Shown one piece after another: positions 17,081 through 43,739 of a stretch of 64,000 nucleotides of DNA. Under the pieces are notes generated by a model, which saw only the letters and a program-made list of their open reading frames with translations, searched no databases and was not told where the DNA came from. The stretch's first letter is position 1. Each line of letters opens with the position of its first letter. Made by a program: the position numbers and the translations under genes. This stretch comes from Eledone cirrhosa (taxonomy: Eukaryota): NCBI GenBank assembly GCA_964016885.1, contig OZ024743.1, forward strand, positions 338,582,001-338,646,000. Direction: 5' to 3'.

Positions 17081-17600
17081 ACTTTTGATCTTATATATTA
17101 TTTATACTCCAGTCCTACAAACTGTAGAGTGCTACTTATCCGATATCTGCATTGCTTTATTGTACTACAATAAAACTCACCTCCTACATATATATATATA
17201 TATATATTATATATATATATATATTATATATATATATATTATATATATATATATATTATATATATATATATTATATATATATATATATATATATATATAT
17301 ATATATATATATATATATATATATATATTTATATATATTTATATATATATATATATATATATATATATATATATATATATATATATATATATATATATAT
17401 ATATATATATATATATATATATATATATATATATATATATATATATATATATATATAAATTAGAATTGGTGCTCTGAAATAGCGATATATATATGAAAGA
17501 ATATATAGGGTATTTTGCAATACACTGTATGCTTAATTAAAAGCATGTTGAAGACATTACTCTATTGTTTTAAAATAGAGACAATGTCACTTATTTAAAT

Positions 17601-17690
17601 TTTCAGCAAACAGGGGAGATAAACTAACAGAGCTCTGTTTCGTACTCTTTGGTACTTATCAAAGCTCACTACTCCTCCTGTTTGCTGAAA
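17601..17690 (-). ncRNA. Degenerate hammerhead in long hairpin
   Basis: Minus strand: TTGATAA-GTAC caaaga GTAC-GAAA-CAGAGCTCTG-TT. Outer stem tttcagcaaacagg/cctgtttgctgaaa. Confidence 0.6.
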
Positions 17691-17957
17691 ATTATGTGTG
17701 TTGGATTCTTATAGAATTCCAGTAATAATCAGGAACTGATTTTACAGAGCAGTCACCGGTCCAGCAGAAATTAAAAATTAGAATTGGTGCTCTGAAATAG
17801 TGATATATATATGAATGTATATAGTGTATTTTGCAATACACTGTATGCATTTTGAAGACCATAATCGGTACAGTATATAAAGATTATTTTGAAGAACATA
17901 ATCGGTACAGTATATGAAGGGATATATAGGTTAACGCTTGATATAGCAGGAAGAGGG

Positions 17958-17993
17958 TCTTAACATTTCGGATGCTAGTCCTTCACCAGAAGA
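17958..17993 (-). ncRNA. Minimal hammerhead variant
   Basis: Minus strand: tctt-CTGGTGA-A-GGA ctagca TCC-GAAA-TG-TT-aaga. Confidence 0.55.
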
Positions 17994-41400: not shown

Positions 41401-41600
41401 TGAGTGATTCACCGCCTGGAGCCAGGCTGGTGTCTCTCTCCTTTTTCCAGGAACGCAGGAAACCGGGATGATGCTCACTTCAGCACCGGTGTCGACAAGG
41501 AAACGCGTGCCTGTGACGCGATCCTGTATGAAAAATAGGCGACTTTGGTTATGAGGGCCAGAAACGTCCGTCGCATTCAGTTTCTGGCTGTGTCGTTTCT
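38409..41600 (-). pseudogene. pol: Gypsy pol (protease, RT, RNase H, integrase); stop at 40873, frameshifts near 40545 and 38680
   Basis: [67 protein letters not shown]. Confidence 0.95.
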
Positions 41601-42433
41601 CTGATTTGTTTTCGAAACAAATGAACAGGGATGGCTGCACTTTTTCGCTCGTCTCCCGAATCTTTGGTGGTACCAACACATTTCTGGTGAATCTCGAGAT
41701 GCGCTGGGACTTCTTGAGCGACCACCAAATCGGCGAGTTCGGCTGTTGGACCGACATGTGGCAGGGTTGCCCAGTGACAAGGCCTGAATTTGTTGCGTCA
41801 AGGCCTGTATCTGTATTGCTTGCTGTGCCAGTAACTGGTGTAGATCGGGCATCTCTGTGGCACTGGAGGGCTGAAGAAAAGGATTGGTGGGAGGCACGGC
41901 TGGCGTCACATTCGCTAAAGTTGAGTGCGGATGTGGTACCTCCATGATCTTATCTGCCAGCTCGGCAAGTTCTTCTATGGTGGTGGACGCTAGTACAACT
42001 TGTGTGGCAGAAGGTAAATGCTGGAGGAAGAGTTGCTTGAAAATTTCATCCGGGAGTTTATGTTCACCCAGAAACTGCTTCATTTTCCGTAGGAGTTGCG
42101 TCGGCTTTTTATCTCCTAATTCCTCCGATATGAAAAGCTGGTGCAAACGCTTCTGCTGCGACTCCGATGTCCGCTTAACTAATGTTCTTTTAAATGTGTC
42201 ATATGACACAGAGCCGGGTGGGGCTAAAATGAGGTCTCGAACCTCATTCATAATCTCCAGAGACATCGAACCGATGACATGTGTGAGACGGGATGCCTCG
42301 CTAACGATCCGGTTCGATGCGAACTGCGCTTCGATGTGCGCGAACCACAGTGTTGGATCGTGCACCCAGAATGGTGGAATGTCGACCTGACTGCCATTTC
42401 TGCCGTAGATGAATCGTCGTGTGCTAGAGACAT
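41577..42433 (-). pseudogene. gag: Gypsy gag, frameshift near 42385
   Basis: PPFW..DPTLWFAHIEAQF, LGDKKPTQLLRKM, CWYHQRFG..AKKC. Confidence 0.9.
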
Positions 42434-43739
42434 TGTTTGTTGTGGATGATCAGAAGGTTGTGTGTCTGTTTTACGGGGTCACCAGTCGTAACGGAATATT
42501 ATGTGTGATTATAACGACAAGTGGATGGATGGATGTAACTGTTGGTATGGTGGTTTCGGCGTAGAGAAAAATACCAGGAGTGTTGTTACAAAGTTTATTT
42601 TATTACAACAATATTCAATTTGAATATTGAATGATAAAATAATTGACACAAAATATTCATACAATAATTTGGTGGCTCTTCGAGCCACGTACATTCAAAT
42701 ATCACAGAATACGATTATAATATGTGTAAACAGAAATGAATGGTGCGTGTACAAATGCTGGACTCACTATGAATGCGTGTGTGCGGCGTATCAATATATT
42801 TACTTATTTGTATTGCAGGAGTCAGCGATCAGCCAGGAAGGTGAGAATAAATGGCAGACTGGTTTTTCGTGACGAGAGCCTGTAAAAACGTCTTGTCTGT
42901 ATCCACTTCTTTTCTGTTCTTGGCGTAAACAATCCCTGTCTTTATAAGAGTTGAAGTTAGAAGGATAGATATATCCTCTGAATTTTGGTTAGTCTCCCAA
43001 GGGATTAGTTTGCCAAGCGTAAACAAGTCAGAAAGATGGATATATCCTCTGACCTATTTTCTGTCAGGCGTAAACACCTCTCACCTGTGTTTAGCCTCTC
43101 CCAAGGGGTTAGTCTTTTGAGCGTAAACAAGTTACCACGGCTTGTCCCAGAGGCGGGAAAGCTCAGATTCGGTTTCGAATCTTCGCCGCCGTTATACACC
43201 CAACTTATAAGCTCACCTAGTAGGGAGCTGAAATAGAAATAAAAGGCAGAGTTAATAACTCATACTGATACCCTGTAATTAACAAGCTCAAAGTATAAAT
43301 ACTGATCATTTTAATAATATCTGTAGTTGTAAACACAGTAAATCGTGTGTCTAAAATATTATTAAAATATGTCAGATATTATTAAAATGCTCAGTATTTA
43401 TACTTTGAACTTGTTAATTACAGGGTATCAGTATGAGTTATTAACTCTACCTTTTATTTGTATATATATATTTGTATATATATATATATATATATATATA
43501 TATATATATATATATATATATATATATATATGTGTGTGTGTGTGTGTGTGTGTGTGTGTGTGTGTGTGTGTGTGTGTGTGTGTGTGTGTGTGTGTGTGTG
43601 CGTGTGTGCGTGTGTGTGTGTGTGTGTGTGTGTGTATAAATGTATATATAATATAAATATAATATATATATATATATAATATATATATATATATATTATA
43701 TATATATATATATTATATATATATATATTATATAACTTT

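Follow-up and report, generated by a model that had tools for sequence, protein, structure and literature searches.

How animal retrozymes move is an open question: RNA circles have been shown in coral, mussel and axolotl (PMC7229834) and a Penelope-like element (PLE) has been proposed as the driver, but insertion-level evidence is not described in the available text of the main reports (PMC7229834; 10.64898/2026.07.22.740005). The same question is raised by a 64,000-nucleotide stretch of the Eledone cirrhosa genome, hereafter the window, in which several TA-flanked islands start and end with the same sequence. The first-pass annotation had taken these islands for candidate retrozymes carrying a hammerhead, inserted by reverse transcription around a circular RNA, probably by the reverse transcriptase (RT) and GIY-YIG endonuclease of a co-resident PLE. 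We asked what the islands are, which enzyme might have written them and what it might have copied.

Six islands and their genome-wide families

Comparison of the window with itself, together with local alignment, gave unit offsets of 318, 414, 323, 568, 632 and 6301 bp for islands A, B, C, D, E and F, respectively, so that all six offsets read in the first pass are real (Table 1). For island E (20518), the proposed offset of ≈630 bp stood, but its repeat, thought to be 25–115 bp, is really ≈345–347 bp long. Island F (37022) is split by a Gypsy-type element, and on removal of this insert its unit measured 436–440 bp, in agreement with the ≈437 bp proposed. The Gypsy insertion is young: its LTRs are 99% identical. 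It is flanked by a CACC/ACACC duplication, and its gag, protease, RT and RNase H–integrase each lie in separate frames. Islands D, E and F finish in inverted arms, which the first pass had missed. The terminal repeats of the islands are not LTRs, since their length differs from copy to copy. The islands are indeed non-coding, with a longest ATG-initiated ORF of 30–68 codons across the family majority sequences, and the six units have no significant sequence similarity to one another. Each island is an ageing copy of its own high-copy, non-coding repeat family, unrelated to the other five.

Table 1. Positions of the retrozyme-like islands, their predicted ribozymes and neighbouring elements in the window.
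Feature	Position	Strand	Details
PLE, 5'-truncated, inverted	14429..17189	+	own hammerhead (16999); candidate enzyme source
Family A copy	17457..17848	-	318-bp unit + 77-bp repeat (95% identity); 3' end adjoins (TA)n
Family A predicted type I hammerhead	≈17601-17692	-	core TTGATAA at 17662, U3-A8 variant; palindromic stem III
Family A predicted cut	17626/17625	-	
Family E main arm	20518..21492	-	632-bp unit + ≈345 bp
Family E hammerhead-like motifs, S-G-C order	CTGATGA at 20579 and 21211	-	cleavage predicted at 20623/20622 and 21255/21254
Family E inverted arm	21493..21775	+	unit positions 318-600; stops at second 3' site, 32 nt before first
Family E third motif	21746	+	in inverted arm 21493..21775
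Family B copy	23255..23775	+	414-bp unit + 109 bp (98% identity)
Family B predicted minimal type I hammerhead	core 23471	+	eroded in the window copy; cleavage predicted after 23501
Family C copy	32784..33132	+	323-bp unit + ≈30 bp (terminal repeat 37 bp, 92% identity)
Family C predicted minimal type I hammerhead	core 32943	+	cleavage predicted after 32974
Family D main arm	33650..34332	-	568-bp unit + ≈120 bp (terminal repeat 121 bp, 96% identity)
Family D predicted type I hammerhead	core 34007	-	U3-A8 core, long loop II, 8-bp stem III
Family D predicted cut	33931/33930	-	
Family D inverted arm	34331..34573	+	unit positions 202-444
Family D second predicted hammerhead	core 34340	+	in inverted arm 34331..34573
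Family F copy, 3' part	37022..37337	-	carries predicted type I hammerhead; terminal repeat 42 bp (local alignment)
Family F predicted type I hammerhead	core 37241	-	stem II eroded in the window copy; cleavage predicted at 37170/37169
Gypsy-type LTR retrotransposon	37338..43193	-	later insert that splits family F and is foreign to the retrozyme
Family F copy, 5' part and inverted arm	43198..43463	-	5' part 43198-43357; inverted arm 43373-43463
Second PLE	44852..47739	-	candidate enzyme source with RT and C-terminal GIY-YIG; reading frame broken; (TA)n at the 3' end

The 3.0-Gb genome contains ≈800–7,500 motif matches or first-look candidates per family: 7,516 motif matches for E, exact 20-mer matches for A (3,873) and D (798), exact 14-mer matches for C (1,866, with 60 direct pairs), and first-look candidates for F (2,019) and B (1,803). 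The best matches are 90–98% identical, and D and E are the youngest families. Tandems include an array of ≈10 units in C, up to ≈7 units in A, a 5-mer in E and dimers in D; B yielded one dimer and F none in the 25 loci examined. An E subfamily forms a homogeneous 9-motif array (locus L421).

A seventh unit-plus-partial island lies outside the range covered by the first pass, at 12458–12989 (+). It belongs to an E-related subfamily, ≈80% identical, with a 515-bp offset, and has the same rearranged motif as family E at 12927. Two large palindromic inserts flanked by TA repeats occupy 31978–32636 and 43233–43463, the first being a head-to-head insert of an unassigned family. Elsewhere (50445–54059, 54443–57865, 7823–8892 and 29146–31194) the window holds LINE-type elements, one with a 1,140-codon open frame, a 59-copy 18-bp minisatellite and a 2-kb (GTG)n-rich tract.

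Predicted hammerheads and the rearranged motif of family E

A relaxed type I hammerhead descriptor gave 9 matches in the window, compared with 0.13 per shuffle in 30 shuffles. Rfam searches of the whole window and of islands D and E recovered none of these ribozymes and gave only low-complexity noise. The descriptor accepts the majority sequence of every family but E; B and F pass as families although their window copies fail. The core is of the U3-A8 variant in A and D, stem III is palindromic in A, B and C, and the usual G10.1–C11.1 pair is missing in B, D and E. Among sampled copies, the catalytic core is intact in 37/43 of A, 23/31 of B, 68/94 of C, 36/37 of D and 20/27 of F. The hammerhead of the 568-bp island D, along with the second one in its inverted arm, was absent from the first-pass list. 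We had considered D as a ribozyme-free family, which was rejected once its U3-A8 core was recognized along with the U-U pair that closes its stem II. A 75%-diverged subfamily still has the D ribozyme, altered at N7 and with G-U pairs replaced by A-U.

Families A, B, C, D and F thus have the DNA features of non-LTR retrozymes, with predicted ribozymes. Like the metazoan elements described in the available parts of PMC7229834 and 10.64898/2026.07.22.740005, the six families are non-coding units of a few hundred nucleotides with a GC content of 0.34–0.45, present as thousands of monomers, dimers and multimers alongside co-resident PLEs, and, except in E, each unit carries a predicted type I hammerhead. 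Unlike the elements presented there, most copies have 1.x units, occur head-to-head and end in two fixed 3' zones at microsatellites, and their cleavage and circles are predicted. The class is a known one, with one variant predicted ribozyme. A literature search found no publication on these families; supplements of bioRxiv papers might list relatives. In Xenopus, eight of nine predicted retrozyme dimers did not cleave in vitro, according to the available text (10.64898/2026.07.22.740005). Islands A, B, C, D and F each carry a single ribozyme on the same strand, so that self-excision of a unit is impossible. Most window copies are dead ends, and the E copy is laid out like a possible source.

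Further type I hammerheads passing the descriptor were seen at 16999 (+), in the tail of the PLE at 14429–17189; at 21984 (-), in a related tail fragment; at 28512 (+), in a small TA-flanked island; and at 36234 (+), in the tail of a GIY-YIG remnant at ≈35400–36400. Hammerhead-like cores failing the descriptor occur in small TA-flanked islands at 24017 (-), 31846/31856 and 33413 (+). Of these regions, 31779–31923 is a palindrome, and 23790–24050 has a 3' motif in common with the PLE remnant ending at 36399. One more descriptor match, at 38237 (+), lies within the Gypsy element between integrase and LTR; it is AT-rich and possibly due to chance.

Family E has a CUGAUGA without a downstream GAAA. 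It had been regarded as ribozyme-free, which was likewise rejected, as the hammerhead blocks are present in permuted form. In 36 distinct copies they run in the order cut site, GAAA, CUGAUGA and can form stems I and III. Pairing in stem I reaches 97.6%, two pairs being compensated, and stem III has one compensated pair; cells changed on both sides numbered 23, against 8.2 in shuffles, and slid controls were 33–51% paired. The covariation of both stems was borne out in a 91-copy set, and represents few independent events, GAAA and CUGAUGA being set by the search pattern. Each main-arm motif in the window has one or two pair-breaking changes, and the two lie 632 nt apart. Between the G and C blocks, a single A-U pair stands in place of the canonical stem II. 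The 5' strand of stem II has an alternative partner in an upstream TCGC, a helix that does not covary.

This arrangement resembles the type SGC hammerheads of PMC10085705 in the order of the blocks, the covarying stems I and III and the short stretch linking stem I with the G block, and differs from them in the one-pair stem II and an extra 6-bp helix beyond stem III. With stem II reduced in this way, the motif is type-SGC-like at best, and E is a retrozyme-like family with a predicted, rearranged hammerhead-like motif. Type SGC hammerheads were found outside the genomes of known organisms, as far as the available text of PMC10085705 goes, and our literature search met them in that source only; E, by comparison, is an animal repeat whose motif is a prediction. 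If E cleaves, rearranged hammerheads extend from environmental RNA to a high-copy animal repeat. The E motif is common to subfamilies with units of ≈519 to 800 nt, several of them with variable internal microsatellites (L421, L425, L426, L408).

Insertion ends and the Penelope-like footprint

To counter best-hit bias, short patterns were used to draw copies in the order of their position on the chromosome. Of 94 C arms, 87 have their 3' end in one 64-nt AT-rich zone, while the 5' ends are scattered, and the ends of A behaved like those of C in the position-ordered sample. Fixed 3' zones were found in A, B, D, E and F as well. The first-pass annotation had suggested circularly permuted start points as a test of circular templates. 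With 3' ends fixed at few sites in C and A, the copies are not circularly permuted. It had also held that fixed ends shared by all copies, together with mapping to pseudo-LTRs of autonomous PLEs and a failure to detect circular RNA, would speak against independent retrozymes. The 3' ends are indeed fixed; shared 5' ends were not found, and neither was the pseudo-LTR link in the sampled loci.

Every family has two internal 3' zones, ≈30–125 nt apart, joined to (TA)n, (CA)n or (CT)n. The end site tracks the flanking repeat: C ends at 306 in seven of nine (CA)n flanks and at 28 in three of four (CT)n flanks. Among 124 head-to-head insertions, 32 were unclassifiable, and 82 of the 92 classifiable ones have one zone per arm (p = 3e-15). 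The ends share 2–10 nt of microhomology with the target repeat, some of which is expected from alignment extension alone.

The insertions bear the marks of PLE insertion, namely 5' truncation, partial tandems, an inverted arm, a one-sided tail and a microsatellite target. PLE insertions ordinarily include partial tandems, inverted arms and a 30–40 nt tail (PMC8557442, available text), and an anole PLE enzyme used uncleaved RNA as its main template in vitro, initiating internally at two start sites with no need for cleavage (PMC11167929, available text). As in PLE insertions and the derivative MRC1 (PMC8557442, PMC11167929), the families show partial tandems, an inverted 5'-truncated arm, a one-sided tail and (TA)n targets, and as with the anole PLE (PMC11167929) they show two internal start sites and read-through of the ribozyme. 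They differ from what is described there for PLE insertions and such derivatives in having no ORF and in the spacing of the two zones, and from the anole enzyme, which starts without homology in vitro (PMC11167929), in the short homology of their ends to the target repeat. Since the partial tandems, inverted copies, tail and two start sites match those of PLEs, the insertion patterns strongly suggest mobilization by the enzyme of some PLE. Two candidate sources lie in the window (Table 1). Copies of the PLE at 14429–17189 have two TA-joined ends genome-wide, at 17106 and ≈17189, as in the retrozyme families, and its endonuclease gave 58,613 first-look candidates. The first-pass picture of dispersed, tandem-capable, hammerhead-bearing non-coding families with PLE-type insertion marks was upheld.

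The copied template and competing readings

Most arms read past the predicted cut (71/74 in C, 59/66 in A, 22/29 in D and 74/91 in E), and the main template was therefore not a linear RNA beginning at the cut. Arms longer than one unit made up 33/94 in C and 36/81 in A, and those of at least two units 0/94 and 3/81, respectively. Drop-off rose 2.1-fold (A) and 2.3-fold (C) after about one unit. The tandem units of an insertion agree in subfamily alleles (19/19 and 27/27 at C sites 116 and 175), and private variants common to the units of one insertion occur at 0.6–5 per kb, against 0.12–0.31 per kb between loci. The units of one insertion descend from one template unit. The 5-mer of E has variants common to blocks of neighbouring units, pointing to later duplication at the DNA level, so that long arrays are not proof of rolling copying. 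Read-through, arms longer than a unit, shared variants and the rise in drop-off are explained equally by a circle, by an uncleaved tandem transcript or by template jumping, so the more-than-unit length that the first-pass annotation took as a sign of copying around a circle also fits a linear tandem RNA. Circular folding gave z scores of -1.2 to -11.3, a measure that does not separate circles from multimers.

A few inserts start at the predicted cut (L505 and L568 in A; L393, L416, L473 and L475/L476 in E; L296 in D), including two-armed joins in A and E, which hints at cleavage of the predicted ribozymes in vivo. The excess of ends at the cut is significant in E only, where TA homology confounds it, weak in A and absent in C (no pile-up, 2/74 and 0/37). 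Independent 5' ends of E numbered nine within 15 nt at or after the cut and seven in the preceding 51 nt, again confounded by TA homology. Three candidate signals were set aside. A pile-up of A ends after the cut in the best-hit sample weakened in the position-ordered one (7/66, p = 0.07); a pile-up of E 5' ends at unit positions 580–585 was a search-edge artefact; and an excess of C ends at unit positions 275–294, partly present already on the first pass of copying (10/57 versus 11/25), sits on a hairpin and was dropped as a transcription start.

The reading that we favour, with moderate confidence, is that the islands are 5'-truncated insertions of non-coding families with predicted hammerheads, likely written into microsatellites by a PLE RT and GIY-YIG endonuclease that probably copied a unit-length RNA circle. 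Loci with at least two same-strand ribozymes would be transcribed, and the transcripts would cleave themselves into units to be ligated into circles, family E using its rearranged (S-G-C order) hammerhead. The PLE enzyme would cut a TA repeat, and each DNA end would prime at one of the two internal sites, aided by 2–10 nt of matching sequence. Each cDNA would cover about one turn, with drop-off about twice as frequent past a full unit, and the two cDNA ends would then be joined. A minority of inserts may derive from cleaved linear RNA. Counting against this reading are the missing G10.1–C11.1 pair in B, D and E, the Xenopus dimers that failed to cleave (10.64898/2026.07.22.740005), the anole PLE's use of unprocessed RNA (PMC11167929), the rarity of arms of at least two units and the absence of sequence common to the families and the PLE ends tested.

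The strongest competitor, which we consider rather unlikely, keeps the same PLE-driven families and replaces the circle with a linear template. This would be either a tandem locus transcribed and left uncleaved, or an RNA with terminal redundancy along which the RT jumps, and the ribozyme would be slow or only an occasional 5' trimmer. Partial tandems, inverted arms and a 30–40 nt tail are standard PLE forms (PMC8557442, available text), internal initiation on unprocessed RNA has been seen in vitro (PMC11167929, available text), the rise in drop-off after one unit would also suit templates running out, and the few A, E and D inserts starting at the cut fit as well. However, most source loci have 1.x units, from which lengths would shrink with each generation unless the RT jumped. 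Recurrent 5' junctions copied from a source were few once duplicates and fold-backs were excluded, a number similar to a rough chance estimate, and no recurrent directional differences between upstream and downstream units were found away from the ends.

It is very improbable that the islands represent pseudo-LTRs of autonomous PLEs, solo or in tandem, that lack an independent life cycle. The available text of 10.64898/2026.07.22.740005 gives 21 cases of Xenopus retrozymes matching PLE pseudo-LTRs, and similar hammerheads sit on PLE ends in the window. In the present families, however, a unit is preceded by another unit, an inverted arm or flank, and not by an ORF. The units have no similarity to the PLE ends tested, which came from 30 loci of one PLE family and from four PLE stretches in the window and so cover a minority of the PLE families of the genome. 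The first-pass annotation had proposed looking for a copy joined to a PLE ORF; with the PLE families seen in this window as queries, an RT–endonuclease frame running into a unit was found in none of 550 partly overlapping loci. A PLE protein match was present in 26 of the 550, seven times upstream on the same strand, and six of those seven are set off by TA runs. The seventh, L530 (510–1560), joins a PLE RT frame to a family A arm with no TA spacer and a 17-nt inverted piece in between, and lacks an endonuclease. This RT-only fusion may have arisen when the enzyme switched templates from one RNA to the other, PLE and retrozyme, or when a retrozyme inserted into a PLE. Least probable of all is duplication at the DNA level (slippage, unequal crossover or satellite spread) with no RNA step, which the block-shared variants of the E 5-mer and the homogeneous array at L421 make plausible for long arrays only, and which is largely refuted for dispersed copies by such marks of retrotransposition as fixed 3' ends, 5' truncation, one-zone-per-arm inversions and conserved cores.

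Extending the favoured reading of PLE-copied circles, we put forward more tentatively that the families form a community of RNA circles parasitizing Penelope-type enzymes, in which a single circle would offer two fixed sites for priming by both ends of a TA cut, while the family with most copies would cleave itself by a rearranged, pseudoknotted hammerhead without a normal stem II, a form unreported from animal genomes in the literature searched. Six independent families with the same PLE footprint and exact predicted cut and start sites make the circle question and the two-primer model directly testable.

A search of sequencing runs listed no RNA run with these families; contigs from two listed runs, which may be of DNA, held only numerous variant pieces, together with ends joined to TA at 20526 and 20553. 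Distinct families are often stacked on one TA tract, for example C beside the ends of D or B (flanks of L082, L108, L111 and L034).
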